Positions 5,794 to 51,093 of a DNA stretch of 52,070 nt are shown one piece after another. The position numbers were made by a program, and so were the translations under genes. The stretch covers positions 1 through 52,070 of the forward strand of contig PFRW01000050.1 in the NCBI GenBank assembly GCA_002788755.1, in the 5' to 3' direction. The notes beneath the pieces are model-generated. The model searched no databases. It was given only the letters and a program-made list of their open reading frames with translations, and was not told the origin of the DNA. Position 1 is the first letter of the stretch. Every line of letters starts with the position of its first letter. Source of the stretch: Candidatus Peregrinibacteria bacterium CG_4_9_14_0_2_um_filter_41_14 (GTDB lineage Bacteria > Patescibacteriota > Gracilibacteria > UBA1369 > UM-FILTER-41-14).

Positions 5794-7283
5794 TTTTGCT
5801 GAACTCTTTGGAGACGGTCGACTACCTGTGGTAGTTCTTGGCTTAGGTATTCCTCAAAGGTTGTGCCTAGGCTGGATTCGCTAACATACAGTTCGAGTTG
5901 TTGGAGGAGCAGGGTTAGGGGCTCAGCTAGCGCTTCGCCTGTTAACTTGTTTGCGGTTTCTAAATCTAATAGGTGACGGATTTGGGACACTCTTTCAATA
6001 ACTAGGGCATTTACAATGTCGGCCTTACTAATTGTTACTTTATATAGTTTTTGGTCTAGTGTGTTAAGAACCTCATAGGCAGCCAATGTGTTTTTGCCCG
6101 GATAGTTATGCAATTGTGACAAAAGGCGTTCCTTTAAGATAAATAGGGTTGATGGCTTGTCGGTTTTGGCAATTTCTGATTTATAGTATTCAAAGTAAGT
6201 GTTGGCGTACTGCCAGGTGGACTGGCTTTCGATGGCGTAGACCCAAAGCTGATTCAACTGTGTTGCACTTAGGACAAGGGCACCGCTTTTAATCATAGCT
6301 GTTTTAATGGGTGCGTAAATACTGTCATCGCCCACGCTGCCATATAACTGAAGCCACTGAGAAACGATTGGCACGGATGCCTTTTTATCATCACTAATCA
6401 GTTGATTTAAACGGGTATTAAAGTCTGTCATTTGCGCTTCGGCTTTGTCGACCTGATTAATTAGGTAAAGCTCACGCGCAGACTCTAGGCTTTGAGACAA
6501 CATGTTAATTGTGACCAGATTGCGTTTGACCGGGTTGTAGATGAACTTTTCGAGAAATGGGATAGTGGAATAAGTGAGACTGCCTTTGTAGGAGAGGTCG
6601 AGCACTGTCTTTTGTTGTAAGTATGAATCTAAGTTAAATGTGTAAACCGTGGCAAGGGGGAGGGGTTTTGTAAAATACTGTTTGCTCAATTTTTCGGCAA
6701 CAGTGTTGTAGCTAAAAGTGGCCCATGCAGCATCAATATCCGCTTCATTAAATTGGATTTGCTGTGATTGAGCCAAATAATGATCAATTTGTTCCAAGGG
6801 TAAATTTAGCTTTAGTCTATGGTTACCTTGCAGGGCTTGTACAGTAACGACTCCGTTTAGCTTGGTTAAGAGACCTAAACTAAACGGTTCGGGGGCAATG
6901 CCAAAATTTTGTGTTTGAATAAAAAATGGGCTGTCACTAAAGCGGTGTTCAAAAACGATGCCACCTTCAATCAATTTTAAATGAACGATATCGTTATTTA
7001 ATGCCACAATTTTGAGCACGGTGTTGGCCGGAGCAATAACGGAGACGTCGTTAAATTTAAAGGCTGCAGTTTTGCTTAGACGTATATAGCGCGGTGTCTC
7101 CCCCTTCATGCGTTCATGCCAACGGTTATTTTGATCGGTTCTAATTTCAAAAGTGCTACTAACCGGAAACTCAATTAGCTGCTGTGACTTTGAGGTAAGA
7201 TTTGAACTTGGCAGACTTTCCAGCAAGATGGTTAATCCGACTAGGATGAGACTTAGGGCAAGAACAATGATTTTCTTATACAT
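5790..7283 (-). CDS. membrane-anchored hypothetical protein (FecR-like beta domain plus long helical domain)
   Basis: N-terminal signal-anchor KIIVLALSLILVGLTILL. Residues ~65-115 (IRLSKTAAFKFNDVSVIAPANTVLKIVALNNDIVHLKLIEGGIVFEH) resemble a FecR sensor domain. The remainder is predicted helical. Confidence 0.5.
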   Translation of the reverse strand: MYKKIIVLALSLILVGLTILLESLPSSNLTSKSQQLIEFPVSSTFEIRTDQNNRWHERMKGETPRYIRLSKTAAFKFNDVSVIAPANTVLKIVALNNDIVHLKLIEGGIVFEHRFSDSPFFIQTQNFGIAPEPFSLGLLTKLNGVVTVQALQGNHRLKLNLPLEQIDHYLAQSQQIQFNEADIDAAWATFSYNTVAEKLSKQYFTKPLPLATVYTFNLDSYLQQKTVLDLSYKGSLTYSTIPFLEKFIYNPVKRNLVTINMLSQSLESARELYLINQVDKAEAQMTDFNTRLNQLISDDKKASVPIVSQWLQLYGSVGDDSIYAPIKTAMIKSGALVLSATQLNQLWVYAIESQSTWQYANTYFEYYKSEIAKTDKPSTLFILKERLLSQLHNYPGKNTLAAYEVLNTLDQKLYKVTISKADIVNALVIERVSQIRHLLDLETANKLTGEALAEPLTLLLQQLELYVSESSLGTTFEEYLSQELPQVVDRLQRVQQN

Positions 7284-7342: not shown

Positions 7343-9022
7343 GTGTGGTTAAGTAGAAACATGTTAACTAATACAAACATGCGAATGAAAAAACTAATAC
7401 TTGTCTTGGGGGTTTTGCTACTATTGCCTAGCTCTGTTTTTGCTCTTAGTACAACGCCAGTTCCTCGTGGTGAATTTATTAAAATTATTTTAGATGCCAA
7501 TAATGTGGTGCCAGCCGCAACAGAAACTGACTTTGAGGGGGTTAGCCCAGAGTTGGCTCCTTATTTGGAGGAGATGCGTAAATTAGGCTTAATCTACTAC
7601 AACGCTTATAGTCCAACTTTTAATGAAGAACGGCCGTTTGCACTTTGGCGGTCTTTGTCATTACTAATGAAGTTGGAAGGAATTCCGGTGCCGATTACAT
7701 TTGACGAAGCTAAGTTTAAAGAAGTGTTTCCAACCTTAGTGCCGGGCGCTTTTTATGCACCAACAATGTTTCGCGCATATCAGGTTGGTCTGGTTGACCC
7801 TTTTAAGCAAGCTATTTGGCCAATTAACCCAACTACCGAAGGTGACGTGGCAATTATGCTGGCAAATCTAGCTTTATACGAAGATAAAATCGATCAGGCG
7901 CTAGACACACCAAATCCAAGCATAAATGACAATACTATTTCTCCTATACAACCAAACGGCTCGTTGACTAATAGCGATAAATATCCGATTTTGCTGGATG
8001 TATGGGATAAAATTACAAAAGAGTATGTTGATAAAAATAAATTAAGTGAGGATGATTTAATTTTTGGGGCAATTGAGGGGCTAGTGAATCGAGTTGGCGA
8101 TCCTTACAGTGTTTTTCAGGAACCGGAAGTAGCGGCAGCTTTTCAAAACTCTTTAAGTAACGAAATTCAGGGGATTGGGGCATCATTGGCTTTGGATGAT
8201 GCCGGCAATGTCGTAATCGTATCTCCACTTAACGATTCTCCGGCAGAAAGAGCAGGCTTGCGCCCCGGCGACGTTGTTAACAGCATTGATGGCAAAGTTA
8301 TCACTAATTTTACTTTGGTGGAGGTTGTACGCTTAATTCAAGGGGAGCCCGGCACGCAGGTGCGACTGGTAATTAAACGTGGGAGTTCGGTGTTAAACTT
8401 TACAATTGTGAGAGAGCGGATTTCGGTAGCGTCGGTTGTTGGTGAAGTTACAGCAGATGACATTTTAATTATTACCGTGAATAACTTTGGCTTTGGCACA
8501 GCCAGTAGTTTTGCAAGTTTTGTAAATCAGACCAATGCCGGTAATCTAAATGGTGTTATTATTGATTTGCGCAATAATCCTGGGGGCTTTTTGGATGCAG
8601 CCGTGGATATTGCCGGTAACTTTTTGGCTAAAGGCAAAGTAGTAACTCGTTTGGTCGGGCCAACTGTTTCAGAGACTGAGTATTCTACCGGTAGTGCAAA
8701 ATTGGCAAATGTGCCGACTTATGTGCTTATGAATAAGGGCAGCGCGTCAGCGTCCGAGATTTTGGCGGCGGCTTTGCATGACCATCACCAAGCGACCTTA
8801 ATTGGTGAAACTTCGTTTGGTAAAGGGACGGTCCAAGAAATTTCGACTTATTTGGACTCATCCTCGCTGAAATTAACGATTGCCAAGTGGCTTACGCCAA
8901 GTGGCATAAATATCCATGGCACTGGTATTAAGCCGGATATCTACGTTCAATATACCGATGCAGATAGAACCGCAGGCGTTGATCCTCAGCTAAATAAAGC
9001 CTTAAACGAAATTAGGAATTAG
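7343..9022 (+). CDS. S41 family C-terminal processing peptidase with N-terminal SLH-like repeats
   Basis: PDZ domain (SPAERAGLRPGDVVNSIDG), RNNPGG, the catalytic Ser motif GSASASEILA and the Lys motif FGKGTVQ. The track start is GTG 7343. ATG 7379/7385 (MRMKKLILVLG...) gives a cleaner signal peptide. Confidence 0.88.
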   Translation: MWLSRNMLTNTNMRMKKLILVLGVLLLLPSSVFALSTTPVPRGEFIKIILDANNVVPAATETDFEGVSPELAPYLEEMRKLGLIYYNAYSPTFNEERPFALWRSLSLLMKLEGIPVPITFDEAKFKEVFPTLVPGAFYAPTMFRAYQVGLVDPFKQAIWPINPTTEGDVAIMLANLALYEDKIDQALDTPNPSINDNTISPIQPNGSLTNSDKYPILLDVWDKITKEYVDKNKLSEDDLIFGAIEGLVNRVGDPYSVFQEPEVAAAFQNSLSNEIQGIGASLALDDAGNVVIVSPLNDSPAERAGLRPGDVVNSIDGKVITNFTLVEVVRLIQGEPGTQVRLVIKRGSSVLNFTIVRERISVASVVGEVTADDILIITVNNFGFGTASSFASFVNQTNAGNLNGVIIDLRNNPGGFLDAAVDIAGNFLAKGKVVTRLVGPTVSETEYSTGSAKLANVPTYVLMNKGSASASEILAAALHDHHQATLIGETSFGKGTVQEISTYLDSSSLKLTIAKWLTPSGINIHGTGIKPDIYVQYTDADRTAGVDPQLNKALNEIRN

Positions 9023-11007
9023 GCCTGCTGGGCCTGTTCAGCAAGAATTTCTTCCGGATTGGTGGTGATAATTTTATCTTCACCGTACGAGGCAATGATT
9101 TGAATGGCCACGTGCTTATTTCCTGCAAAAAATAGGCCTTGGCCAACATTGCTGTTTAGTAATAAGTAGCGCTCCCCTTCTGTTAAATTAAAAATCTGGC
9201 TCAGCAGTTCAACCGCCGATGGTGACTGTTTGAGCAACAGCTGCATAGATGAGTTGGTAATGATCGGTTTGCCGTATTTGCTTTTGAGGAAATCTTCAAC
9301 ATCTTGAGTAATGGTCGTAACACCTAGGTAATATTTACGAGCACGTTTGACTAAGCCGTGTAAAAACTTGGCGGAATCTTCAAACTGCATCATGGTCCAG
9401 GCCTCATCTACAATTAAGAGTCGGCGTTTTAGCGAGCTTCGCACTTGATTCCAAATGTAATTTAAAATGATGTACATGGCGATTGGTCGTAATTGGTCTT
9501 CTAAATCACGTACGCTAAAGACAACTAGACCTGTGTTTAAATTAACGTTTGTTGGCTTATTAAAGACACCAGCGTAGGTACCGCTAATGTATTTTTCCAG
9601 TTTTTGCACAATCACTTCGGCGCCCTTAATACCTTTTAAAATACTGAAGAGATCTTCCATGGTTGGCGGCTCCATGCCTGTTGGGTCAACCATGTCCATG
9701 GTGATTCCTTTTAGGGCATAGACATCGATTAAGGCTTTGTCGACCAAGCTTTCTTCGAGCGGGCTAGAAGAGCCAAGCATTAATTTGAGAAGGCCTTGAA
9801 GGGTAATAATATTAGTACGTAGGAGGTCACCCGGTTTTGGTTGTTCGTCAATTAGGGCTGCGGGGAGGTCAAATGGATTAATCCGGCGATCTGCATTTAG
9901 TGAAACGCGTAAATATGAGCCGCCCACAGTTTGAGCCAGTTCTTCATACTCATTTTCCGGATCGATGACAATTACGTCGGTTCCGAGCATAAGGCTGCGG
10001 AGGATTTCCAATTTAACAGCGTAAGATTTACCGGCACCGGACTTGGCAAACACAACGGAGTTAGCATTTTCGAGATTAAAACGATCAAAAATAATCAAAC
10101 TTTCGTTATGGCGATTAAGGCCGTATAAAATACCTTCGTTTGTAGTTAGGTCACTTGAACTAAACGGGAAAGTGGAAGATAGCGGTGAGGTGTTCATATT
10201 ACGGTGAATTTCGATTTCGTCTAAACATAATGGTAAAGTTGAGTTTAGTGCTTGTTCTGCACGTAAATCGGCACGTCTGGTTAGGACCAGCTTACCACCG
10301 AGTAAACTTTCGATTTGCTTGGATAGCTTATTAAGTTGATCTTCGTCTTCGGCATAAATAGTAATGTACATGCCAAACTGAAAGAATTTTTCTTGCCCAC
10401 GTTGAATTTGGGTTCGGAGGTTTTCGGCATCTTCCAGCTGTGTTTCTAGGGCTGGATCGCGCACAAGGCCTTTTTCTTGGTTAATGCGCATTGCGGAGTG
10501 CATTTGTGTGACTTTGCGTTTAAGAATCTTCATAATTGCTGCAGATTCGATAGGGTAAATAAACTGAGCAATATCGATTGTTGCATCAAAATTAACCAAT
10601 GGGTTCATCCAGTTTGTTTCGATATAACGCGGATAAGTAAAAACGAAAAAACTGCGAGCGTATAGGCCGCTGACTTTCATTTTATCAAAATAGATCTCCA
10701 TTGCCGAAGGGGCAATGAGGTCTTTAATAGAGGCGAGGCCTTGATTATAGGCTTTTTCAGCTTCTATTAGGCGGGTGCGCTCGGCGGGTGTGAGTTTTTC
10801 GGGTTTTGTGGATGCGGGCTTCGCTGCAGGGGGCTGGGCCTTCGCTGACGCTTCGGCTGCTTCAGAAGGCACGGCCTTTGCTGACGCTCCGGCTTTGTTC
10901 TGATACCAATGCTGAATTGGCCCTAACACCTTATCAATAAGGGACGTTTTGGCCGCAATGGGAGCTGGGGCTTCTGTTGGAACCGGCTTGGTTGGTAAAG
11001 TTGGCAT
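9019..11007 (-). CDS. VirB4/TrbE-family type IV secretion ATPase
   Basis: Walker A FAKSGAGKSYAVK followed by VIVIDPENEYEEL, and Walker B RRLLIVDEAWTMM followed by RKYYLGVTTITQDVEDF. The N-terminal ~90 aa form an Ala/Pro/Lys-rich low-complexity extension. Confidence 0.8.
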   Translation of the reverse strand: MPTLPTKPVPTEAPAPIAAKTSLIDKVLGPIQHWYQNKAGASAKAVPSEAAEASAKAQPPAAKPASTKPEKLTPAERTRLIEAEKAYNQGLASIKDLIAPSAMEIYFDKMKVSGLYARSFFVFTYPRYIETNWMNPLVNFDATIDIAQFIYPIESAAIMKILKRKVTQMHSAMRINQEKGLVRDPALETQLEDAENLRTQIQRGQEKFFQFGMYITIYAEDEDQLNKLSKQIESLLGGKLVLTRRADLRAEQALNSTLPLCLDEIEIHRNMNTSPLSSTFPFSSSDLTTNEGILYGLNRHNESLIIFDRFNLENANSVVFAKSGAGKSYAVKLEILRSLMLGTDVIVIDPENEYEELAQTVGGSYLRVSLNADRRINPFDLPAALIDEQPKPGDLLRTNIITLQGLLKLMLGSSSPLEESLVDKALIDVYALKGITMDMVDPTGMEPPTMEDLFSILKGIKGAEVIVQKLEKYISGTYAGVFNKPTNVNLNTGLVVFSVRDLEDQLRPIAMYIILNYIWNQVRSSLKRRLLIVDEAWTMMQFEDSAKFLHGLVKRARKYYLGVTTITQDVEDFLKSKYGKPIITNSSMQLLLKQSPSAVELLSQIFNLTEGERYLLLNSNVGQGLFFAGNKHVAIQIIASYGEDKIITTNPEEILAEQAQQA

Positions 11008-11061: not shown

Positions 11062-11511
11062 CTAACTCCTACCTAAAGTACGGTTTACATTAGCTCTCGT
11101 AATTCTTCTGACATGACTTGCCGGTGTAAGATTTGGATATAGCTTTGAAAGAAAGCGCTGTGTTGTTTGATCAAACCGGTCAAAATCACCATTTAAAAGG
11201 CACTCCTCGTAGGCATTGCGATCGGGGGTTATCCGTTTTAGTGTTTCATTAATATTATAACTTCGTGCCAAATCCAGCCCAAACCACTGATTGGCTAATG
11301 ACTTATAGGCGTCAGAGCTTAAACCATACTTTGGTGCTTGAGTTAGATAATCCAGCCACTTATAAGCGGGCGGCAAATTACTCTTGCCATCAATTTTCCG
11401 GATGAACTGTTTAAACCGATTTGGGGTGAACTCCTGCTGGGTAAGCGTTTCGAAGCGTTGCTTGTACGATTCATTATTGTCATAACTTTCTGGCACAATT
11501 TCCGGTAACAT
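11062..11511 (-). CDS. hypothetical protein (149 aa), likely co-transcribed with the VirB4-like gene
   Basis: ATG-initiated ORF 54 nt upstream of the VirB4-like gene on the same strand. I recognise no motif, TM helix or signal peptide. Confidence 0.5.
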   Translation of the reverse strand: MLPEIVPESYDNNESYKQRFETLTQQEFTPNRFKQFIRKIDGKSNLPPAYKWLDYLTQAPKYGLSSDAYKSLANQWFGLDLARSYNINETLKRITPDRNAYEECLLNGDFDRFDQTTQRFLSKLYPNLTPASHVRRITRANVNRTLGRS

Positions 11512-14248: not shown

Positions 14249-15478
14249 ATGCGCACTGCTACCCGTTTAATTATTGCCGGTTTACTGGTTAGTTTAATGG
14301 GGGCAGGGCTTGCATTTGCTGCTAATGCCGACTTGTACGTTACTCAGGGGGGCATTAGTTTAGCAACGGACAATGTTTTTGAAGGCTCGCCGGTGCGAAT
14401 TTATGCAACGGTTGGCAATAATGGCACTAAAGATGCCCGCGGTTTAGTTCGATTTTTTTTAGATACGGATGTGTTAAAAATCGGGAGTGATCAGCCAGTT
14501 GCCGTAATAGCCAACAATAGCGACGTGGCATATGTTGATTTATATCCACCGAAAGGACAGCACACGATTATTGTGCGCGTGTTGCCGTGGGACCCAAGCG
14601 AGGATGCGCCCGGCAACAATATAGCCAGCCGAGCAATTTGGGTAAAAGCTGATAATGATCATGACAAAATTGCGGACGATGAAGATACAGATGATGATAA
14701 TGATGGCGTGATTGACACAAAAGATGCCTTCCCTTTTGATAAGAATGAAAGTTTAGATTCAGACTCCGATGGCCAAGGCAACAACACTGACTTTGACGAT
14801 GATAACGATGGTGTACCGGATGAAAATGATGCACTCCCTCTAGATCCAACCGACAGTGAAGACAGAGATGGCGATGGCATAGGCGATAAAGCCGATCCCG
14901 ACGATGACGGTGATAACTTAGATGATGCTGACGAACTAATGATTGGTTTAGACCCTACCAAACCGGACACAGATGGTGACGGAGTTTTGGACGGTGATGA
15001 TGCTTTTCCATTTGATCCAAAGCTAGCATATGACACAGATAAAGATGGTATTGGTAATGAAATCGATAAAGATGATGATGGCGATGGAATTGTTGATGAG
15101 GAAGATCCCATGCCATTAAACGCAGGGCCAAAACTTGAAGTAAACTTGAGTACGATTAAAGCAGCAAACTTTAGAATTGTTTTTGATGCCGGGCGTTCTT
15201 TTGATCCGGACGGGGAGATTGCCAAAATTGTTTGGGATTTTGATGGCGTAATTAAGGAAGGACCTCAAGTTGTACATGTTTTTCAGGAGCCCGGTCTTAA
15301 AAAGGTGACGGTAACTGCGTTTGATAACATGGGTGAAGGTCGCAAACGAGTATATGAAATTAAAGTATGGGGGTTTGGGACTGTGTTAATTTTAATGTTC
15401 ACCCTAATTGTACTTGCTCTTGCATTTACAATTGGAGTTATTTATAGTCTGCGTGCTCAAAAAAATTCCAATTTATAG
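14249..15478 (+). CDS. surface protein: signal peptide, CARDB-like domain, thrombospondin type-3-like Ca-binding repeats, PKD domain, C-terminal TM anchor
   Basis: Signal peptide LLVSLMGAGLAFA. There are at least 7 D.D.DG..D..D repeats (for example DTDDDNDGVIDTKD and DSDSDGQGNNTD). PKD signature FDAGRSFDPDGEIAKIVWDFDG...VTVTAFDNMGEG. C-terminal helix VLILMFTLIVLALAFTIGVIY. Confidence 0.75.
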   Translation: MRTATRLIIAGLLVSLMGAGLAFAANADLYVTQGGISLATDNVFEGSPVRIYATVGNNGTKDARGLVRFFLDTDVLKIGSDQPVAVIANNSDVAYVDLYPPKGQHTIIVRVLPWDPSEDAPGNNIASRAIWVKADNDHDKIADDEDTDDDNDGVIDTKDAFPFDKNESLDSDSDGQGNNTDFDDDNDGVPDENDALPLDPTDSEDRDGDGIGDKADPDDDGDNLDDADELMIGLDPTKPDTDGDGVLDGDDAFPFDPKLAYDTDKDGIGNEIDKDDDGDGIVDEEDPMPLNAGPKLEVNLSTIKAANFRIVFDAGRSFDPDGEIAKIVWDFDGVIKEGPQVVHVFQEPGLKKVTVTAFDNMGEGRKRVYEIKVWGFGTVLILMFTLIVLALAFTIGVIYSLRAQKNSNL

Positions 15479-26026: not shown

Positions 26027-28927
26027 ATGGAACATAATAATCTTGGTACCGAGAGTTTACCTACTAATAAAGTACCCGTAAATAATACATTACACGTACC
26101 TGTTGAAAATCCAGGTAAGCACCTTGTAAAACTTGGTGAATGCAATTTCGCAGTGCAAATTACGGATAAAGGTAATGTAATAATTTTAAGTGATAGGACA
26201 GATCATGCTGTTGCAGTTAATAAGAAGAACTTTGAAATTGCAAAAGTACAATTTAACGAAGACGGTGAAGTTACACTTGTGGATAATGCTCAAGTACTTA
26301 ATGGTAACTTAGTAGATGTTGATGAAGATGCTGGAAAGATTGAGTTTGACTTTGGATATAAACGCGGCCGTTACAGCTTAATAGCAGTTTATAAGGAAGA
26401 TAAAAAAGGATCTGAAGTAGTTGTTGAATCGATTAATGAGGAAATACAAAAAGTTGTGGCAAAGACTGAAAAAGTTTCAGAACTGTTGCAATCTGGCGAT
26501 AGTCAATACGGTATCGATATTAGAAATGGCGTTTTACGAGAATGCTTATCGATTCATACTGATAACTATGGTGCGTATTTAACCAACGTTTCGGATACGC
26601 CAGGTCAAACAACTTATATGCTAGAAGTACTTCGCCCTTTAACAAGTGAAGAGGCTACAGCTGAAACAGCAACGCCACGCGAAGACCGTAGGATTACCGG
26701 TCCGATTACAATAACTGTAACTGATTCTGTTTCTGAAGGCATTAAATTGATCACAGCAGATTCACTAAAACAGGGTAAGCACCAACAAGTCATGATCTCT
26801 AATCATGGCAAGAAAATTGAATTAAATGGAGAAATCACTAATGATGCAATGGATTTCACTATTAGTGTTGCGGTAGATGGTACAATAAATATTGTATCAA
26901 ATACAGAATTACGCACCTTTCATCATGCAAAATCTGCAATGGAATCTACAGTGTTACGAGGAGAGAAGGAAAATGATACGCAATCAATTATTCAGCCGCC
27001 AACTGAACCTCCAACTCAACCACAAATTATGCATACTATTGATAAATCCCATGTAGTTGGTGAATCGCGCGAATTAACGCAAATTGGCGAAACAATTAAT
27101 GTGGTATTGCAAAACGGTGTGGAAATGTTAGTGACGATTGGTGATGACGATTACCATGTTATCCAAGAAGAAGGTGCAGACAGGCTAACGGTTACTGATT
27201 TGCAAAATAATCAGCTGACACAATTAAGCCCATCTACCGACTTCCGTGTTGGTACGACGTTAAGCTCTAATAATGGTGACGCAAAGGTTGAGCTAAAAGT
27301 TCGTACAAATGATAATGGTTTGCCCGTTGTTAGTATTACTAAACTTGCCGGTATTGTAAGTTATTTGGTTGCAGATAATAGTCCTCAGCCACAAACTGTT
27401 GATATACCTACGCCACCAGAGCCAACATTAGATGAATTACAACCAGAACGTGTAAGTGTTGATCTAAAGGCAAATCAAGCGCAAATAGGAATTGATCTTA
27501 GTTATGGGATACAAACTTTGTATTTGGGAAGCCAAAACCATATTATTTACTTAAGACGTATTACTGACGATAGATATAGTATTCAAATTCGCGATGAATC
27601 AGATGCCACCAAAAAACATACTTACTACGTTGCCGAGATTACTGTTTCACGAGATAGAAATGGCAAACCAATACTATGCAACTTGGGAGATAGTACGGAG
27701 GCTCTATTTGTAAATGTTAATACAATCGATATTAAATTTCATGACTTAGATTTTTCTTTATGCCTAGCAGATGATGGTACTTGGGAAATTGAAGCTAATT
27801 GTGACTTAAAAACAATATATTATTTTGCCCCAAATACACCAAAATCAGAAGTTTGTGACTTAAGAACACCAAACGACCTTGACGCCAAATTAGCAGATGG
27901 TGAACCCGTATCAGACTATAATCCTAGCTCATATTTACCACGTGGCGATCAAAAAGATCCATTGGTTAGAGATAAAACATACCGTGAATTAACTATGGGG
28001 AATAATACTGATGAGACAGCAAAAACAAGAATGGAGGCGGCATATCAATCAATAAAATTGCATTTGACTAGACTAAACGTGGAGAGCCCTTCTGAAGACG
28101 ACGTATTAGGTTGGGGACGTATACTTGCCGACATTGATAAAAATGACAATGCAAGTAAAGTTAATTATTTGGCAGATGTTCTTGGTCTCAATAATCGCAA
28201 GAAATCATTAATTAATGAGCTTAATATAATTAGTAGTAACGTCTCAATATATTACCAAGCACATCAAAATAATATCAAGCATGCAAAAGGTCAAATTGCT
28301 GCATCGGAAGAGATTGTGGCACGATGGGAACATCAGGTGAGTTATTTATTTAAGATACTTGGAGCAACACAAATTGTGGAACCTACTGAACTGGTAAAAT
28401 TTGCAGAATTTGTAGCGGACAAGGCAAAAAGCCAAACCGAAGTTGAGTTGCATGAGACAATTAAAAATCATCTTGGTATAAAGGAACCAAAAATGAATAC
28501 ACTTGCAAAAATGTGGCGCTCTCTTTTCCCAAGTAAGGCCAAGCAAGCTGAAGCAAATAACATAAAATTATTGCAGCATAAGTTAAACAGCATTTTGCAA
28601 ATGACGTCTCAACTAGAAAAAAATAGAGATTATATTAGAAAGACAGAACTAAACTCAATTAAGCCAGTATTTGAATTTATGGGAAAGGTATCTAGTACTA
28701 ACTTTGATAAAGTTATTAAAATGGCTAATGAAAACTATGGGTTTGCCGTTTTAAATAAAAAATTTGGTGATCCAAGTGATCCAACGTATGCAAAAATAGC
28801 TAATGATTTACGTACGATGGAAATGGGCTTTCCCGACGAATTTCCAGCGACTACCAGAGATGGTATCGATGTCAAAATTGTATATTCTAAATTTGAAACG
28901 CCAATACTGGTAGTCGAAGATTTTTAA
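26027..28927 (+). CDS. large hypothetical protein (966 aa), no signal peptide or TM helix
   Basis: Uninterrupted ATG-initiated ORF that is visibly more AT-rich than its neighbours. The N-terminal ~620 aa look like reiterated beta-rich modules separated by P/Q/T linkers. The C-terminal ~300 aa are helical and Lys-rich. Confidence 0.7.
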   Translation: MEHNNLGTESLPTNKVPVNNTLHVPVENPGKHLVKLGECNFAVQITDKGNVIILSDRTDHAVAVNKKNFEIAKVQFNEDGEVTLVDNAQVLNGNLVDVDEDAGKIEFDFGYKRGRYSLIAVYKEDKKGSEVVVESINEEIQKVVAKTEKVSELLQSGDSQYGIDIRNGVLRECLSIHTDNYGAYLTNVSDTPGQTTYMLEVLRPLTSEEATAETATPREDRRITGPITITVTDSVSEGIKLITADSLKQGKHQQVMISNHGKKIELNGEITNDAMDFTISVAVDGTINIVSNTELRTFHHAKSAMESTVLRGEKENDTQSIIQPPTEPPTQPQIMHTIDKSHVVGESRELTQIGETINVVLQNGVEMLVTIGDDDYHVIQEEGADRLTVTDLQNNQLTQLSPSTDFRVGTTLSSNNGDAKVELKVRTNDNGLPVVSITKLAGIVSYLVADNSPQPQTVDIPTPPEPTLDELQPERVSVDLKANQAQIGIDLSYGIQTLYLGSQNHIIYLRRITDDRYSIQIRDESDATKKHTYYVAEITVSRDRNGKPILCNLGDSTEALFVNVNTIDIKFHDLDFSLCLADDGTWEIEANCDLKTIYYFAPNTPKSEVCDLRTPNDLDAKLADGEPVSDYNPSSYLPRGDQKDPLVRDKTYRELTMGNNTDETAKTRMEAAYQSIKLHLTRLNVESPSEDDVLGWGRILADIDKNDNASKVNYLADVLGLNNRKKSLINELNIISSNVSIYYQAHQNNIKHAKGQIAASEEIVARWEHQVSYLFKILGATQIVEPTELVKFAEFVADKAKSQTEVELHETIKNHLGIKEPKMNTLAKMWRSLFPSKAKQAEANNIKLLQHKLNSILQMTSQLEKNRDYIRKTELNSIKPVFEFMGKVSSTNFDKVIKMANENYGFAVLNKKFGDPSDPTYAKIANDLRTMEMGFPDEFPATTRDGIDVKIVYSKFETPILVVEDF

Positions 28928-44277: not shown

Positions 44278-45186
44278 ATGAAATTTGGGCTGAGAAGTTT
44301 ACTTTTGACTATGGCAACAGTACTGACATTATTTGCTGGAAACCTCTACATGGTGCCGCAAACAAATGCTTTTTTTGACTTGGCGACAGATCAATATACG
44401 CAGTTTTTGCCGGGTACAACAGGTAGTACATTGCAAGAGCGTGCCGGTAATCTTTTAAGTAGAGCGACGAATATTGTGCGGCTAGTGATTGCACCAATTG
44501 CCATTTTAATTATGTTAACCGGTAGCATTAGGATGGTAATGGCTCGTGGTGATGAAGAGGCATACAAAAAAGGCACACGGACACTGGTATATGGTACGGC
44601 CGGTATTGCCATTGTGGCTTTATCCGGTGATCTTGCACAACTGTTATCACCGGAAAGTGGGGGTCTGTTGGGTAGTGACGCTGTATTGCGTGAACGTGGT
44701 CTTATTTTTGATAACACACTGAGGATCGTTTTAACTTTTGTGAAATATGTGGCGGGAACGGTTGCCGTTGCTATGTTAGTGCGTATTGGATTCCGATTGG
44801 TGGCTTTTAGTGCCTCGGATGACGAATTGGCGGAAGACAAAAAGAATATGGGTTTAATTGCTGCCGGTCTTGTAGTTCTGATTTTTAGCGATACCTTAAT
44901 TAGAAAAGTTTTATACAAGGTCGACTCGCCTGTAGATGGTGCTGTTAGTGCTGATTTACCACAAGCTATGAAAGAGCTGGTGGGGTTTATTAATTTAATT
45001 GTGACTTTTGTGGGGCCAATTGCCCTGATTACTTTAGTGGCGGGTGGCGTGATGTATGCTGCTTCCGGTGTTAACGAGGAACTGCAAGCTAAGGCCAAAA
45101 AGATGATTGGCGTTTCGCTGGGAGGGATCATTTTAATTTATGGTGCCTTTGCGATTGTAAATACCTTTATTGTTGGTCGATTTTAA
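44278..45186 (+). CDS. polytopic membrane protein made of three tandem VirB2/TrbC-like pilin-hairpin modules
   Basis: Signal peptide ending ...PQTNA. The modules lie at about aa 62-123, 147-212 and 231-298. Each is a hydrophobic helix, then a loop such as ARGDEEAYKKG, SASDDELAEDKKN or ASGVNEELQAKAKK, then a second hydrophobic helix. The last ends AFAIVNTFI. Confidence 0.65.
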   Translation: MKFGLRSLLLTMATVLTLFAGNLYMVPQTNAFFDLATDQYTQFLPGTTGSTLQERAGNLLSRATNIVRLVIAPIAILIMLTGSIRMVMARGDEEAYKKGTRTLVYGTAGIAIVALSGDLAQLLSPESGGLLGSDAVLRERGLIFDNTLRIVLTFVKYVAGTVAVAMLVRIGFRLVAFSASDDELAEDKKNMGLIAAGLVVLIFSDTLIRKVLYKVDSPVDGAVSADLPQAMKELVGFINLIVTFVGPIALITLVAGGVMYAASGVNEELQAKAKKMIGVSLGGIILIYGAFAIVNTFIVGRF

Positions 45187-45193
45187 TCAAATT

Positions 45194-46231
45194 ATGTTGA
45201 AACTGTTTAAAACAATACCGTTAATCGTCATGCTGGCTTGCAGCCTGTTTGTAACCACAGTGCCTAGTGCCTTGGCTTTTAAGATTGATGTTAATGTAGT
45301 GCCAAAAGAAGATAACACGCCTCTAATTGATGAAAAAACTTCGCCACTACAATTTTTTGAGAACATTGGAAATGCGACAGATTTAAATAATATCAAAAAT
45401 GAAACCGGTGCAAACGTTGTGAGCGAAGGTGGTCTTGGCCAAATTACGGGACTGCTAAGTAAAATCATTAATATTATTAAATGGGCGATTGGTGGTGTAG
45501 CGGTAATATTTACAATTTGGACGGCGGTGCGCATGCTAACGGCAACCGATGAGGCTGAAGCAGTAATGACTGATGCAAAAAAGGGACTCACCTATTTATT
45601 AATTGGACTATTTTCGGTTTTTGCAATTGAGATTTTTGTGAATAATGTGCTGGTGATTGGTGATGGCAACTTTTTGGGCAGTGTGGATGCGGCAAGAAAT
45701 GCTGCCGGGGCGGCTAGTGCCGAAATTAGGGGCATCTATAACTTAGGTGAAATATTTTTGGGGATTTTTGCGGTGGGAATCATCATCTTTAATGGCTTTA
45801 AAATGGTGACCAATGCCGGCAATGATGAAGCGCTGGACAATGCCAAAAAGAATATTGGCTGGGGTATTGCCGGAATTGTATTGGTTGGTCTATCGGAGCT
45901 GATTGTGAAAGACATTTTGTTTGTAGATGCAGGGCAAGGTGGCTTTGATATTGAAAGAGCCAAACAACTAATTGTCCAGTTAACTAATTTTATTTCCGGA
46001 TTTATTGCGGTTACGGCGGTAGTCATGTTTATTTATGCAGGTTACTTATACATCTTTTCGGCCGTTGGTGATGACAATACCGAAAAAGTTAAGCAAGCAA
46101 TTTTGGGTGCTATTATTGGCATAATTATTGCTGCCGGTGCTTATGGATTAGTTAATACTTTTGTAAAATTTGAAGCACCAACATTTTCAGAGGTAATTCA
46201 AGGACAAATTGACAGTGGATTGGGGAATTAA
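45194..46231 (+). CDS. second polytopic protein with three pilin-hairpin modules
   Basis: Signal peptide MLKLFKTIPLIVMLACSLFVTTVPSALA. The three module loops are TATDEAEAVMTDAKKG, NAGNDEALDNAKKN and SAVGDDNTEKVKQA, each flanked by hydrophobic helices. The last module ends GLVNTFV. The track start at 45170 is TTG. Confidence 0.65.
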   Translation: MLKLFKTIPLIVMLACSLFVTTVPSALAFKIDVNVVPKEDNTPLIDEKTSPLQFFENIGNATDLNNIKNETGANVVSEGGLGQITGLLSKIINIIKWAIGGVAVIFTIWTAVRMLTATDEAEAVMTDAKKGLTYLLIGLFSVFAIEIFVNNVLVIGDGNFLGSVDAARNAAGAASAEIRGIYNLGEIFLGIFAVGIIIFNGFKMVTNAGNDEALDNAKKNIGWGIAGIVLVGLSELIVKDILFVDAGQGGFDIERAKQLIVQLTNFISGFIAVTAVVMFIYAGYLYIFSAVGDDNTEKVKQAILGAIIGIIIAAGAYGLVNTFVKFEAPTFSEVIQGQIDSGLGN

Positions 46232-46281: not shown

Positions 46282-46311
46282 GCCCTTCCTTTCCATAAAG
46301 GGGCTTTTCTG
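46282..46311 (+). terminator. possible intrinsic terminator or attenuator between the pilin-module genes and the giant gene
   Basis: GCCCTT, an 11-nt loop, then AGGGGC (6 bp including one G-U pair), followed by TTTTCTGTT. Confidence 0.4.
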
Positions 46312-46341
46312 TTATACTTATAAGATTTATTTGAGGAAATT

Positions 46342-49300
46342 ATGCGTAAATTACTTTCTTTAATCGGTAAGTTCCTAACTGGAGCCATTCTTGCAACCAT
46401 GCTAATGGTGGCATTTGGTGGTACTGAGATTGTGGCAGCGCAAGATCTTTGCGGGTCTATCTCTGGTGACTTTGGGGGGTTTATTGATTGTAATGATCAA
46501 ATTACTTCTTTTACTCAGTTTTCGGGTGGCTTGGAGCCGGTGGCGGCTACGGGGCTAGATCCAAATTTAACGAGAACAGATAACGCGAGAGATTTTATTA
46601 AAAGTATTGTTAACTTTGCGCTGAGCTTTCTTGGTTTAATTGCGCTGGTCATTGTGATTTACGGTGGCTTTTTGTATGTAACCGATGCCGGTGCGGGTGA
46701 ACAGTCCGAAAAAGGGAAAAAGGCGATCATGTATGCGATTATTGGTATTTTGATTATTTTGAGTTCGTTTGCAATTGTAAACACGGTGCTAAAGGCGCCG
46801 GGTGACATTGGCACAAGTGGGCAGCCGGGTGGTCCGGGACAAACCAATGTGCAACAGTTAGCAAACTACAACAGTGCGGCCGAGCAAACTAAAGATGCAA
46901 CCTTGGAATTTATTAGAGCTTATGAAAATTACTTTAATCAAAGTGTACTGCTGCAAAAAATTATGACTTACAAGGCAGATAAGCTAACAACCAGACAAGA
47001 CATAATTGACTACCTTCAATTTGTACGTCGCAATTTAGCTGATCTTGAACGTCGGAATGGCACATCAGAGGGGACGGCTAATCTTTCGCAAGCATCGCTG
47101 GCGGCACGAATTACGATTGATAATGTTGTGGACCCGTCGTTGCAATTAATGGAAGACACGATTCAAGCCGAAACAACCGAGGAAGCCTATGTTAAGGCTT
47201 ACCGTAATGGTATTGGGAGCTTTATTGATGATTCACGCAAACTTGTGGACGATGTGGTAGAAGGTGTGTCTTCTGCCGGTACTGCAATTAAGAGTGTCTT
47301 TACGGGCGGTGATGCCGGTTTAAATAAGCGTGCTGAAGATATTAACTGTTACTTACCACCGGAATTCCGCGCTGCAGATAGATCCTTTGATTGTAAAGGA
47401 GCGCTAGAAAGCACGAAGACGAACAAAGGTAGTGATATTATCGACAGTGTAAATGCCTATATTGAAGACATTGTGATTAAGAATGGCATTAACGTTGATT
47501 ACAATGACCGGCTTGAGGTGATTGTTAATAGCACACGTGATATTCAAGATAACCTATTAAACTTTGGGACTGTGCAAGTAACTCCGGAAGTGGATCGAAC
47601 CTTTACAGAGGTAATAAATTTATTGGGCGATGCTCGTGCGGAAAATATTGCATATCAAATTAATGTTGGTCCAAATGAGTTTGGCAGTAACCCAAATGTG
47701 ACAGCATCGGAAGCATTTCAACGAACAGCCGTTGTCCGTGATTTATTATTAAAATTTAATGATCTATATGAGCTGCTCAATAATATTGATTTTGTGGCGG
47801 CCTTTGTGACAGCAACAGCAACAAGAGGTAATGCGCCACTGGTGGTGCAATTTGATGGCTCCGGCTCATACGATCCTGCCGATCAATCTTTAACAGATGA
47901 AAACTACGAATGGGATTTAGATGGTGATGGTCAATTTGGACGCATTAATCCGGACAACGTGATGGACTGTAAAGAAGAGAAACATGCAGTTGTCACTTGT
48001 ACATATAAACAACCCGGTTCATACCGTGTAGCCTTGCGTGTTACCAGTAACCGTCCGGAACAAATTGCACCGGGACTTGCCTATATTACCGTAAGCGTGC
48101 AAGAGCCGGTGGCTAAAATCGATTTAAAGACTGTAATTGATAGTGAGGAAATAGTTGTGCGCAGTTATAATGCATCCGGTTTTATTGAACGGGATATTGA
48201 CGAAGTGAGAGTAACCTTAAATGAGGCATCCGCCGGCGAAGGCATGGTGTTTGATGCCCGTGGTACGGCGCTAAATTCCGAAGGCAAACAAATTGTGCGC
48301 TACAGTTGGGATTTTGGCGACAGAACCGCCAAGCTAACCGGCAGTGAACAAGAGGCCGGGCGCGTGGCACATGTTTATACTCAAAATGGAACATATAGTG
48401 TGGTGTTGGAAGTAGAAGATGAAACAGGTAATAAGGATCGTAAAATTTTCCGTGTAGTTGTCACTTCTTTGGCGGCAAATTTGCGAGTTAGTGAATTTAG
48501 AGGCGACCTAAATACCGAATTTACTTTTGATGCCGGCCGCTCTAAGAGTGATGGTGGTCAAATTACACAATACAATTGGTCGATTGCCGGCGTGGATGAT
48601 TTGGATGCGGAAAATGCGCCGACCTTAAAACACCGATTTGAAAGTCCGGGCACATATACTGTGACCGTGCAAATTCAAGATTCGGCCGGTAATGCCGACA
48701 CGGTTTCTACCGAAGTACTGGTAGAGTCGCAAACGCCAAAGGCATTCTTTACGGTTGAGTTTATTCCAAGTCAACCAAGTACGGTCATTTTGGATGCTTC
48801 CAATAGTTATGATCCGGACGAAGGTGATGTACTTAGTTTTCAATGGACCGTATTTAATGCCCGCGAAGGTACTGATTTTGAGGTATTATCCGGCAAACTA
48901 AAAGGCCCTCGGGCTGATGCCGAAAAACTTAAACTCAAATTTAACAAACAACGTAACTATGTTGTGGAACTTAAAGTAGCGGACCAATACGAAGATGATC
49001 GTTTACGAAAAGAAACCAGCTTACAAGCAGATGTAAATATTCAATCACTAGTAGATGTGACAATAGGTACGGATCATCAACAAGCAGCCATTTTAAGAGA
49101 CGGTAAAGCTGATGTCACTCTGCATTTTGTCTCTGACTTTGCCAAAACCATAGAAGTGGATTTTGGCGATCAGTCGCAAGAGGCGGGCGCTTTTACAAAT
49201 GGTAGCTTTAAGGTTAATCATACTTATACGCAGTCTGGTTTATACCGTGTAGTTGCGCATGCTTTTGGACCGGAAGGTGATGAAAACAGTGTCACAACAA

Positions 49301-51093
49301 CTGTGGCCGTTGGCCGTGGTGACGCAATTATTCCGGTTGTGGAAATTGACTATAATGGGGTTACATACCACTTGGATGATACCTTACCGGTAATAAGCCG
49401 TAATCAATCCGTAAAATTTAGTGCCGGAAAATCATTAAACAGTAATGGCACAAAAACGGGTCTGGAATATAGTTGGAACTTTGGAGATGGGCGCTTTGCC
49501 GATGGCGCAGCGGCCACTCATACATTTACGGACTTGGCACCAAATCCACCCGGATACTTTGAAGTAACACTGCAAGCGGGCAATAGCCTTGGTCAAAGTG
49601 AAACTATTAATTTTAACTTAAAAGTAGCCAGTGTGCCGCCGGTTATTAAAGATATTGTAGTAACGCCTCTTGTCGAAAATCCGGTGACACCATTTAATGT
49701 GCGTGTAGAAGCACAAGGTGCTGCCGATCCCGATGGATCAATTAAAGAATACCGTTTCTATTATTTTTCTGTTTTAGATCCGGGGCGCATCTTAGGAACT
49801 AAAATTGTGAAAGACCCCACAGCCGAGTTAGAAGTAGATACCTTTGGCGTTGAAGGTGACCGTAATGAATTCGCTTTTTGTGTCGATATTAAAGATAACG
49901 AAGGCAACACAGTTAACTGCCAAGAACGCTTTAAATTGGAAGACCTACCAAAACTAACTGCCACAAACGGCAAAAATGATCCGCCGGTTGCAAGTTTTGT
50001 TGTTGATCGAACCAATGTATTTGTTGGTGAAGAGATCAATTTTAGTAGTACTTCGTCAGATCCCGACGGTGAGATTGTTAGTTATCAATGGGATATTGAC
50101 GGTGATGGTAGTTTTGCCAACGATGAGCCAAAAACACAAAGTGCACTCGTACAAACATATACTCGTCGATCTGCAGAAACAGGTTATCGTGTGCGTCTCA
50201 AAGTTGTTGACGACAAGGGTGCGACTGCAATTTCGGAACCGGTAACAGTCTTTGTAGATAGTATCTTAAAGGCACCAACTGCCGCATTTACAACTAAAAT
50301 AACAAATAGCAAAGTTGATTTTGTGAATAATTCTCGTGCCGATACAAGTAAGGGTGGTGAGCTGGTCGTTAATAATTGGGATTTTGATTTGAGCCGTGAT
50401 AGCGATGGTGATGGCGACAAAACAAATGATGTTGATGCCACCGGTGCGACGCCAAGCCATACTTATGTTGAGGCTGGCACATATCAAGCTAAACTAGCGA
50501 TTGCCGATAATGAAGGCACTGAAGATAGCGTGATTAACACAATTATCATTACCAATGTATCCGCAGCAGGCCCAGCCATTAATAATGGTAAAAGCGCAGC
50601 AGGTTTAAGAGCGGTACTTGATACTGAACCGGCAATTGACCCGGTAACAGATACAATCTACCTGGAAGGTGCCGAAGCCAATGTTACTTTCTTTTTTGAT
50701 GCCAGTTTAGGTGACATTAAAAGTTATATTATTGATCGAAATATCTTCTTTGACACTAATGGTGGTCAACCAAATACGCCTGGTGATGGCATTCGCAATA
50801 ATGATGCTGACTTTATAACGCAAAATCCCCTAGTTCCTTACACAAGTAATTTCCGTCCGGAATGGGAACCTGTTGAAGTTCAGCTAACAGTTGTAGATGC
50901 TAATGGCAATGTTAGCCAAGATCGCGTTAAGGTAACATTTGCTAAACCGGGGCTAGGGCGAGCCACATTAAGTAATGTAAGTAGCACGATGCTAATAATC
51001 ATTCTTGCGATAGTAGGTGGACTTGGTGTATTATTATATGTTGGGTCTTTACTACTTTACCGGCCGAAACGCGGCAAACGTAAATTAAATTAA
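46342..51093 (+). CDS. giant surface protein (1583 aa): signal peptide, one pilin-hairpin module, helical region, about 10 PKD-like domains, C-terminal TM anchor
   Basis: GAGGA Shine-Dalgarno site 5 nt upstream. The module at aa ~83-152 reads FIKSIVNFALSFLGLIALVIVIYGGFLYVTDAGAGEQSEKGKKAIMYAIIGILIILSSFAIVNTVL. PKD signatures recur (YEWDLDGDG, YSWDFGDR, YSWNFGDG, YQWDIDGDG, ...GTY.V.L.V.D..G). The C-terminus is MLIIILAIVGGLGVLLYVGSLLLY followed by RPKRGKRKLN. Confidence 0.85.
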   Translation: MRKLLSLIGKFLTGAILATMLMVAFGGTEIVAAQDLCGSISGDFGGFIDCNDQITSFTQFSGGLEPVAATGLDPNLTRTDNARDFIKSIVNFALSFLGLIALVIVIYGGFLYVTDAGAGEQSEKGKKAIMYAIIGILIILSSFAIVNTVLKAPGDIGTSGQPGGPGQTNVQQLANYNSAAEQTKDATLEFIRAYENYFNQSVLLQKIMTYKADKLTTRQDIIDYLQFVRRNLADLERRNGTSEGTANLSQASLAARITIDNVVDPSLQLMEDTIQAETTEEAYVKAYRNGIGSFIDDSRKLVDDVVEGVSSAGTAIKSVFTGGDAGLNKRAEDINCYLPPEFRAADRSFDCKGALESTKTNKGSDIIDSVNAYIEDIVIKNGINVDYNDRLEVIVNSTRDIQDNLLNFGTVQVTPEVDRTFTEVINLLGDARAENIAYQINVGPNEFGSNPNVTASEAFQRTAVVRDLLLKFNDLYELLNNIDFVAAFVTATATRGNAPLVVQFDGSGSYDPADQSLTDENYEWDLDGDGQFGRINPDNVMDCKEEKHAVVTCTYKQPGSYRVALRVTSNRPEQIAPGLAYITVSVQEPVAKIDLKTVIDSEEIVVRSYNASGFIERDIDEVRVTLNEASAGEGMVFDARGTALNSEGKQIVRYSWDFGDRTAKLTGSEQEAGRVAHVYTQNGTYSVVLEVEDETGNKDRKIFRVVVTSLAANLRVSEFRGDLNTEFTFDAGRSKSDGGQITQYNWSIAGVDDLDAENAPTLKHRFESPGTYTVTVQIQDSAGNADTVSTEVLVESQTPKAFFTVEFIPSQPSTVILDASNSYDPDEGDVLSFQWTVFNAREGTDFEVLSGKLKGPRADAEKLKLKFNKQRNYVVELKVADQYEDDRLRKETSLQADVNIQSLVDVTIGTDHQQAAILRDGKADVTLHFVSDFAKTIEVDFGDQSQEAGAFTNGSFKVNHTYTQSGLYRVVAHAFGPEGDENSVTTTVAVGRGDAIIPVVEIDYNGVTYHLDDTLPVISRNQSVKFSAGKSLNSNGTKTGLEYSWNFGDGRFADGAAATHTFTDLAPNPPGYFEVTLQAGNSLGQSETINFNLKVASVPPVIKDIVVTPLVENPVTPFNVRVEAQGAADPDGSIKEYRFYYFSVLDPGRILGTKIVKDPTAELEVDTFGVEGDRNEFAFCVDIKDNEGNTVNCQERFKLEDLPKLTATNGKNDPPVASFVVDRTNVFVGEEINFSSTSSDPDGEIVSYQWDIDGDGSFANDEPKTQSALVQTYTRRSAETGYRVRLKVVDDKGATAISEPVTVFVDSILKAPTAAFTTKITNSKVDFVNNSRADTSKGGELVVNNWDFDLSRDSDGDGDKTNDVDATGATPSHTYVEAGTYQAKLAIADNEGTEDSVINTIIITNVSAAGPAINNGKSAAGLRAVLDTEPAIDPVTDTIYLEGAEANVTFFFDASLGDIKSYIIDRNIFFDTNGGQPNTPGDGIRNNDADFITQNPLVPYTSNFRPEWEPVEVQLTVVDANGNVSQDRVKVTFAKPGLGRATLSNVSSTMLIIILAIVGGLGVLLYVGSLLLYRPKRGKRKLN

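Follow-up and report, generated by a model that had tools for sequence, protein, structure and literature searches.

The stretch of DNA analysed here (the window) comprises 52,070 nt of contig PFRW01000050.1 from Candidatus Peregrinibacteria bacterium CG_4_9_14_0_2_um_filter_41_14, an uncultured, ultra-small member of the candidate phyla radiation (CPR; Patescibacteria). Near its end, the window contains four consecutive genes (genes 1–4; Table 1), the third of which is an intact open reading frame (ORF) that starts with ATG and encodes a protein of 1583 aa. From the N to the C terminus, this protein consists of a signal peptide, a VirB2-like pilin hairpin, a Gly-rich hinge, a helical region of ~320 aa, ten PKD-like immunoglobulin (Ig)-type modules, a transmembrane (TM) helix, and a basic tail (RPKRGKRKLN). 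This order was obtained from Pfam matches, a hydropathy scan, an AlphaFold model, PKD profiles, and hhalign comparisons, and it agrees with the domain read-out given in a first-pass annotation of the same DNA. Hydrophobic segments of the protein are confined to aa 4–33, 84–118, 125–154, and 1540–1574 in a Kyte–Doolittle scan. The products of genes 1 and 2 are covalent triple hairpins, each with six TM helices in addition to a signal peptide, and gene 4, which runs off the end of the window, encodes a second PKD protein in related genomes.

Taken together, the signal peptide, the Lys-rich hairpin loop, and the basic tail predict an out-in-out topology for the hairpin and out-in for the C-terminal helix. 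The KGKK loop of the hairpin falls on the inside, like the basic C-terminal tail, and four closely spaced Cys pairs (37/50, 336/351, 543/553, and 1180/1193) all lie within segments with a predicted outside location, which is where disulfides would be expected. The extracytoplasmic location previously proposed for the PKD region fits these features. Because the topology signals and the positions of the Cys pairs point in the same direction, anchoring at both ends is the best prediction for the 1583-aa protein.

Table 1. Positions of genes 1–4, of the parts of the gene 3 product, and of other features in the window
Feature	Position	Strand	Evidence
Gene 1: 302 aa, signal peptide and three VirB2-like hairpins (aa 54–125, 143–214, 228–300)	44278..45186	+	PF18895 E 1.7e-16, 3 stretches; synteny
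Gene 2: 353 aa, signal peptide and three VirB2-like hairpins (aa 90–163, 180–252, 262–334)	45170..46231	+	PF18895 E 2e-25, 3 stretches; TrbC E 6e-6; synteny
GAGGA, Shine–Dalgarno-like site	46333..46337	+	4 nt ahead of ATG, read from sequence
Gene 3: 1583 aa	46342..51093	+	Intact ORF, ATG start
Signal peptide, aa 1–33 (...EIVAA/QD)	46342..46440	+	Hydrophobic aa 4–33; equivalent N-terminus in orthologues
Pre-hairpin segment, aa 34–80, predicted extracytoplasmic	46441..46581	+	Cys37/Cys50 pair; TSFTxFxGGL...GYDxxLT motif
VirB2-like pilin hairpin, aa 81–152: TM helix, loop TDAGAGEQSEKGKKA, TM helix	46582..46797	+	PF18895; TrbC E 5e-5; Mbov_0395; model
Gly/Pro-rich hinge, aa 153–166	46798..46839	+	Coil, pLDDT <50; Gly-rich family consensus
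All-helical stalk, aa 167–487, with Cys336/Cys351 pair	46840..47802	+	AlphaFold (AF2) model
Ten PKD-like Ig modules, aa 488–1533	47803..50940	+	Pfam PKD_4; self-derived profile; hhalign
C-terminal module, aa 1534–1583 and stop: juxtamembrane GLGRATLSNVSS, TM ~aa 1548–1572, tail RPKRGKRKLN	50941..51093	+	Hydropathy; C-terminus alignment
Gene 4 (runs off window end): acidic Pro/Glu/Val-rich tandem-repeat N-terminus, first TM helix	51104..52070	+	Translation; orthologues; synteny
497-aa secreted protein	5790..7283	-	
VirB4-like ATPase	9019..11007	-	NCBIfam conju_CD1110 371.9 bits (cut-off 325); Pfam TraG P-loop, AAA_10, TraC_F_IV
149-aa protein	11062..11511	-	
409-aa surface protein	14249..15478	+	
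966-aa ORF	26027..28927	+	

The hairpin family and the conserved four-gene set

The hairpin was assigned to the Pfam family T4SS_pilin (PF18895), a family of type IV secretion system (T4SS) pilins. The match covers aa 81–148 and scored 29.9 bits with the whole protein and 35.7 bits (E 9e-9) when aa 1–163 were searched alone, the curated cut-off being 26.6 bits. The NCBIfam model for the Mbov_0395 pilin-like family of a Mycoplasma integrative and conjugative element gave a sub-threshold score of 32.4 bits on the 1583-aa protein. A signal peptide followed by two hydrophobic helices with a short positive loop (...EKGKKA) corresponds to the layout of T4SS pilins; the protein is not a stand-alone small pilin, since ~1430 residues follow the hairpin. 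In an AlphaFold model of the N-terminal part built from a 47-sequence alignment (mean predicted local distance difference test score, pLDDT, 72; a six-sequence version of aa 1–500 with a pLDDT of 47 was discarded), the two helices of the hairpin span residues 82–114 and 119–151, and the hinge (152–166) is disordered. A Foldseek search of the PDB with this N-terminal model returned no pilin among the matches. A plain uncleaved signal anchor, which was also considered as the identity of this segment, is ruled out by the separate signal peptide that precedes it. The relation of the hairpin to the upstream modules, proposed in the first-pass annotation, was confirmed: the same module occurs in both upstream genes, and, among the hairpins that these encode, the third of each is the most similar to that of gene 3 (32–42% identity, versus 17–37% for the others).

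In an alignment of 92 orthologues, the hairpin is the most conserved region, with a mean identity to the query of 66%. The corresponding values are 36% for the pre-hairpin segment containing Cys37 and Cys50, 29–49% for the PKD modules, 16% for the helical stalk, and 15% for the C-terminal TM helix. The loop residues G117, G125, K126, and K127 are nearly invariant across the family, and C37, C50, F57, G62, L76, and T77 of the pre-hairpin segment are invariant in one of the alignments (A1). Because the hairpin is conserved ~4 times better than the other membrane segment, it does not behave as a plain anchor; this pattern argues for a hairpin that is under packing constraints. In two other proteins (P0006 and P0008, ~450–474 aa), the same T4SS_pilin hairpin occupies the N-terminal part, ahead of an extracellular domain that is different and rich in Cys. 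In CPR bacteria, the hairpin is thus an N-terminal module that is reused to display other domains.

A search with the full protein identified at least 92 full-length relatives of 1404–1763 aa (10th, 50th, and 90th percentiles, 1485, 1587, and 1665 aa), which share 28–50% identity and the same domain order. All of these 92 orthologues carry PF18895 and PKD and are named in the source records at most as 'PKD domain-containing protein', and no paper on a pilin-hairpin/PKD protein family was found in literature searches. When representative sequences were searched with the N-terminal 500 aa, 57 proteins were obtained at E <=1e-30 and 905 at E <=1e-10. Among the best 150 cluster representatives, 95 are at least 1300 aa long, and the shorter ones include many multi-hairpin proteins with 3–8 hairpins, such as P0125 (820 aa).

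Three distant orthologues were found in the same gene neighbourhood as in the window, and a scan of species-representative genomes yielded 222 loci, nearly all of which are in genomes titled Candidatus Peribacteria, Peregrinibacteria, Gracilibacteria, or Patescibacteria. From these species representatives, 85 loci were annotated with self-built hairpin and PKD profiles. The gene order was the same in ~75 of them, i.e. two genes for triple-hairpin proteins (each ~300–390 aa), the gene for the hairpin–PKD protein (1367–2032 aa), and a gene for a protein with six PKD domains (686–865 aa). The four-gene set is always divergent from secE-nusG-rplK-rplA, and the arrangement in the window is identical. 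The hairpins of genes 1 and 2 are conserved across genomes in a position-specific manner. The link to the upstream pilin-domain genes, which had been suggested from the window alone, is thus strongly supported by synteny in ~75 species. As judged from the alignments and gene orders, the 1583-aa protein is not a one-off fusion but a member of a conserved family and operon that extends across a class-level clade. Contigs bearing the operon next to nusG were also found in metagenome-assembled genomes titled 'Bacteroidetes bacterium' or 'Nitrospirota bacterium' (L027, JAJRSV010000178.1; L070 and L077, JAUVQE01...), and these non-CPR titles are probably due to binning contamination or mislabelling.

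As to the remaining members of the set, gene 2 starts with TTG or, alternatively, with ATG at 45194. The orthologues of gene 4 encode a low-complexity N-terminus, which is probably cytoplasmic, three TM helices, and six PKD domains, with no C-terminal TM. In the window, gene 4 contains a tandem array (51339–51983) with an 18/54-bp unit (~36 or 12 copies, 79–80% matches) that encodes a region of the (E)QPV(A/S/V)P type before the first TM; the N-termini of the orthologues differ and are Gln/Pro/Ala-rich. TM2 and TM3 of the orthologous proteins are connected by a Lys-rich loop and might represent an eighth pilin hairpin, although the matches are weak (E 1e-4 with our own profile in one orthologue, and Pfam E-values of 0.016 and 0.9 among noise).

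Helical stalk, PKD array, and C-terminal module

Past the hinge, the AlphaFold model contains helices alone up to residue 480 (167–208, 218–240, 250–308, 362–407, 415–430, and 455–480), which bears out the helical region that had been placed before the PKD array. A Pfam search of this region gave no match at E <=10, and neither a VirB5-like nor any other family could be assigned. In the Foldseek search of the PDB, the best match of the N-terminal model had an E-value of 0.065, with TM-scores of 0.12–0.25, and no significant structural relative was found (none below E 0.06). The matches obtained were generic long-helix proteins (ClyA, AhlB, PaxB, and ciliary microtubule inner proteins; E >=0.065, TM-score <=0.25), and a ClyA-type alpha-pore-forming toxin was rejected as the identity of the region. 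On the basis of this model, the region is described as a variable stalk with no recognisable relative.

In the PKD array, Pfam PKD_4 (PF18911) matched in seven stretches (215.9 bits, E 5e-65), as did PKD (PF00801; 175.2 bits). A profile derived from the two best PKD domains of the protein itself detected nine modules (488–583, 621–707, 713–794, 800–895, 922–990, 1010–1095, 1216–1303, 1313–1403, and 1434–1533). The intervening segment of 120 aa (1096–1215) had no Pfam match when searched alone and was linked to the profile of PKD8 by hhalign (91.6% probability, E 8e-7); modules 5 and 10 were linked to other PKD modules in the same way with ~98% probability. The nine modules detected by the self-derived profile, together with residues 1096–1215, give the count of about ten in the first-pass annotation. 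All ten modules show an occupancy of at least 0.86 in the 92 orthologues, and each has its own conserved signature, indicating that copy number and order are fixed; modules 8 and 9 are the best conserved. Comparison among related genomes therefore revealed little variation in PKD copy number, and all ten modules are positionally orthologous. One exceptional orthologue (L064) is 2032 aa long and contains extra modules, with at least 11 PKD domains.

The C-terminal anchor is less uniform. Approximately 13 of the 73 complete orthologous genes stop right after the last PKD domain ('...EIKFK' followed by the stop codon), and gene 4 starts beside this stop. The loci of this subclade, in which the protein ends in '...EIKF(K)' with no C-terminal TM, are L024, L037, L044, L052, L057, L060, L062, L064, L068, L070, L081, and L082. 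The second anchor is thus dispensable for the core function of the family, and anchoring at both ends, while predicted for the 1583-aa protein, is not a defining feature of the family. In most orthologues, the last PKD strand is separated from the TM helix by a conserved motif, G-A-N-[LIV]-F, which is degenerate in the 1583-aa protein (GRATLS) and could be an unrecognised processing site. The C-terminus of this protein and those of nine orthologues were searched with the NCBIfam models for sorting signals (LPXTG/sortase, PEP-CTERM, PGF-CTERM, GlyGly-CTERM, and others), and none matched at E <=10 beyond one chance-level match (PEPxxWA in one orthologue; E 0.18, 11.7 bits against a cut-off of 35). 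The C-terminal helix is therefore part of no sorting signal known to these models in any of the ten proteins. A search for GAN[LIV]F in the other ORFs of the 85 loci, which covered the flanks of the loci, found no further occurrence.

A 409-aa surface protein encoded elsewhere in the window (Table 1) combines a signal peptide with a CARDB domain, thrombospondin type-3-like Asp-rich repeats, and a single PKD domain, and it ends in a TM helix and a basic tail. Its presence shows that the tethering of Ig-type proteins by a C-terminal TM is generic in this genome.

Possible roles of the four-protein set

We favour, with moderate confidence, the interpretation that the gene 3 product is the large displayed subunit of a conserved four-protein surface apparatus based on VirB2-type pilin domains in Peribacteria, Peregrinibacteria, and Gracilibacteria. 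According to sequence and comparison, the protein is exported by the Sec pathway via its signal peptide, and the VirB2-like hairpin is inserted with both ends outside and the KGKK loop inside. This leaves ~1390 residues on the extracytoplasmic side, first as the variable helical stalk and then as a rod of ten PKD modules, and in this organism the C-terminal stop-transfer helix and basic tail tie the far end back to the membrane. The hairpin may act as an assembly module that packs with the six hairpins contributed by the two upstream proteins, and perhaps also with TM2–TM3 of gene 4, and the packed hairpins may form a membrane-embedded or short protruding oligomer. If extended, the stalk and the PKD rod would have a contour length of ~45–50 nm (assuming ~3.5–4 nm per PKD module and 8–9 nm for the helical bundle), and the exposed part could touch the envelope or a host cell. 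A subclade is without the second anchor, which may set the geometry (a loop rather than a free rod) and would therefore not be essential. It is plausible that the hairpin joins or nucleates a pilin polymer, as was originally suggested for a covalent pilin–adhesin fusion. In view of the C-terminal anchor, the concatenation of the pilins, and the lack of T4SS genes linked to the operon, an assembly that is short or embedded in the membrane is more likely than a long extruded pilus.

Several observations weigh against this interpretation. The canonical TrbC/VirB2 profile (PF04956) scored 23.8 bits, below its curated cut-off of 27.9, and a profile of the hairpin matched no solved T4SS pilin among the PDB sequences. 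The only other T4SS-type gene in the window, the VirB4-like ATPase gene, is located ~35 kb from the pilin operon, and T4SS_pilin-domain proteins of CPR bacteria have been seen as oligomers or pili in no experiment or structure. Moreover, with a constant number of domains and conservation that is nearly universal, the protein is more reminiscent of a structural envelope component than of a typical fast-evolving adhesin, and a role in adhesion is inferred from the general behaviour of PKD/Ig arrays.

Two other roles can be proposed for the hairpin. The VirB4-driven T4SS might polymerise it into an extruded VirB2-type pilus made of the upstream products, in which the fusion would be a minor pilin (at the tip, at the base, or as a nucleator) that carries the adhesin and is tethered at the base by its C-terminal TM. 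Published structures of F- and T-type pili show pilins with their two termini on the outer face, and a C-terminal extension could therefore be displayed on such a pilus. The membership of the hairpin in the T4SS_pilin family with a weak TrbC match, its similarity to the third hairpin of either upstream protein, and the presence of a VirB4-like gene within the window are consistent with this role, and a pilus in Patescibacteria has been considered possible (PMC12857230). We nevertheless consider it doubtful, since a C-terminal membrane anchor is difficult to square with extraction of the hairpin, save within ~50 nm of the base, covalent triple pilins have no known precedent in solved pili, the hairpin profile matched no solved pilin, and Gracilibacteria have been reported to lack VirB6 homologues and to have dispersed T4SS genes (PMC12102498). 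Alternatively, the hairpin may be a robust double-pass anchor and the four proteins a housekeeping envelope scaffold, S-layer-like or wall-spanning, with no role in secretion or pilus formation. This seems unlikely to us, because a plain anchor would not keep 66% identity while the other TM drifts to 15%, the position-specific conservation of the triple hairpins indicates specific helix–helix packing, and the near-invariant loop residues suggest a specific interaction. Features that would suit a scaffold are the near-universal synteny beside secE-nusG-rplKA, the fixed number and positional orthology of the PKD domains, the lack of linkage between the operon and virB4, the generic occurrence of membrane-tethered Ig proteins indicated by the 409-aa protein, and the fusion of T4SS_pilin hairpins to other extracellular domains in P0006 and P0008.

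A third possibility concerns the C-terminus, where the helix may belong to an unrecognised tripartite sorting signal (G-A-N-[LIV]-F, TM, and basic tail) that is cleaved, the mature protein being held by its hairpin, transferred to the wall, or released. Sorting signals, including those of the LPXTG and PEP-CTERM classes, generally consist of a motif, a TM helix, and a basic tail in this order, and the layout found here matches this form, with a juxtamembrane motif that most orthologues retain immediately behind the last PKD strand; the subclade that functions with no C-terminal module also agrees with it. Given that no NCBIfam sorting model matched the ten C-termini at E <=10 beyond chance, that the motif is degenerate in this organism and occurs in no other ORF in the flanking DNA of the 85 loci, and that no sortase-like gene was seen in the window, we regard cleavage as very unlikely.

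A bolder form of the favoured surface-apparatus interpretation, improbable in our estimate, is that the four products assemble, in a monoderm CPR bacterium, into a T4SS-type tube or filament with the VirB2 fold, the subunits being partly concatenated (3 + 3) and one of them bearing a membrane-tied Ig rod of ~45–50 nm that serves for adhesion and, where a host-contact conduit has its base, as a tether, ruler, or sheath. If true, the T4SS superfamily would gain its first pilin–adhesin fusion and its first 'poly-pilin', and the missing adhesin of Patescibacteria would be supplied.

The hairpin resembles VirB2/TrbC pilins, the PF18895 proteins of Patescibacteria, and the Mbov_0395 family in having a signal peptide and two helices joined by a short Lys-rich loop, and, as for the pilins of Patescibacteria, the gene is located in a pilin-domain array and a VirB4 gene is present in the same genome. 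Known T4SS pilins are stand-alone proteins of ~70–120 aa, whereas the hairpin here is continued by the stalk, the ten PKD modules, and a second TM; its neighbours are covalent triple hairpins, and virB4 lies at a distance from the operon. The role inferred for the protein, that of a surface contact factor associated with a T4SS-type apparatus, is the same as for PrgB of pCF10 and the VirB5 tip adhesin. No similarity in sequence or fold to either of these was found; PrgB is LPXTG-anchored, and VirB5 is small, helical, and unfused to a pilin. Membrane-tethered PKD/Ig-repeat proteins of monoderm bacteria and archaea likewise combine PKD-like domains in tandem, with Asp-rich loops that are probably Ca-binding, and a C-terminal TM helix that precedes a basic tail. 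These proteins have no N-terminal pilin hairpin and no pilin operon, whereas in the present family the number and order of the domains are fixed across a class-level clade. The Pam pili (PamA/PamB) are also a CPR-specific surface filament system with Ig-like domains; their pilins are assembled by donor-strand exchange with chaperone-usher-like factors and are found mainly in Saccharimonadia and Microgenomatia (bioRxiv 10.64898/2026.03.03.709456). With 55.1 bits, a match to PamR (NCBIfam NF058578; cut-off 300) falls short of the threshold; it coincides with a PKD module, reflects the generic Ig-like fold, and was rejected.

In a survey of 3,035 Patescibacteria genomes, VirB2-like pilin gene arrays were described and no adhesin such as PrgB was found; intragenic pilin repeats and pilin–PKD fusions are unmentioned in that survey (PMC12102498). 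Patescibacteria are the only monoderms with VirB2-like pilins, and the pilin arrays and the T4SS were essential in the one species tested (PMC12102498; PMC12857230). In work on Vampirococcus, giant PKD-containing membrane proteins were noted in general terms only (PMC8080830). In terms of domain content, the protein is a new architecture of a known module, i.e. a VirB2-like pilin domain joined to a fixed ten-PKD rod, with concatenated pilins encoded in the same operon. Gene-level surveys thus overlooked pilin repeats within genes as well as fusions of pilin domains, and the four-gene set may be the missing attachment part of the pilin system of these bacteria. The family bears on the questions of whether Patescibacteria make a pilus from their pilin/T4SS genes and of what touches the host, and it offers a tractable handle on both, because its ten PKD domains could be easily tagged to locate the pilin-domain assembly, its protrusion, and its contact with the host.

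Other features of the window

The window is a chromosomal stretch that also contains gyrB, gyrA, tgt, glyA, purD, purF, folD, rplA, rplK, nusG, and secE. No VirB6, VirB8, or VirB3 was recognised among its proteins with Pfam and NCBIfam, and the VirB4-like gene stands alone. Its neighbours encode an S41 peptidase and two proteins (497 and 149 aa; Table 1) with no Pfam or NCBIfam match. The 966-aa ORF, which has one weak hydrophobic segment, likewise matched neither database.

The attenuator hairpin proposed at 46282–46311, upstream of gene 3, was not supported, as the folding of the 110-nt leader does not exceed that of shuffled sequence (z -1.33). At 46290–46318, a sigma-70-like site (TTTCCA-17-TATACT) is a consensus match only. 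The GAGGA site in front of gene 3 is present and, as stated in the first-pass annotation, rare in the window, where Shine–Dalgarno-like sites precede 4 of 41 genes. Such a site was found at 3 of 77 orthologous loci, so that it was rejected as a feature of the family and GAGGA was treated as incidental. The upstream regions in the window are A/T-rich rather than Shine–Dalgarno-bearing, which suggests that translation initiation is largely independent of this signal.

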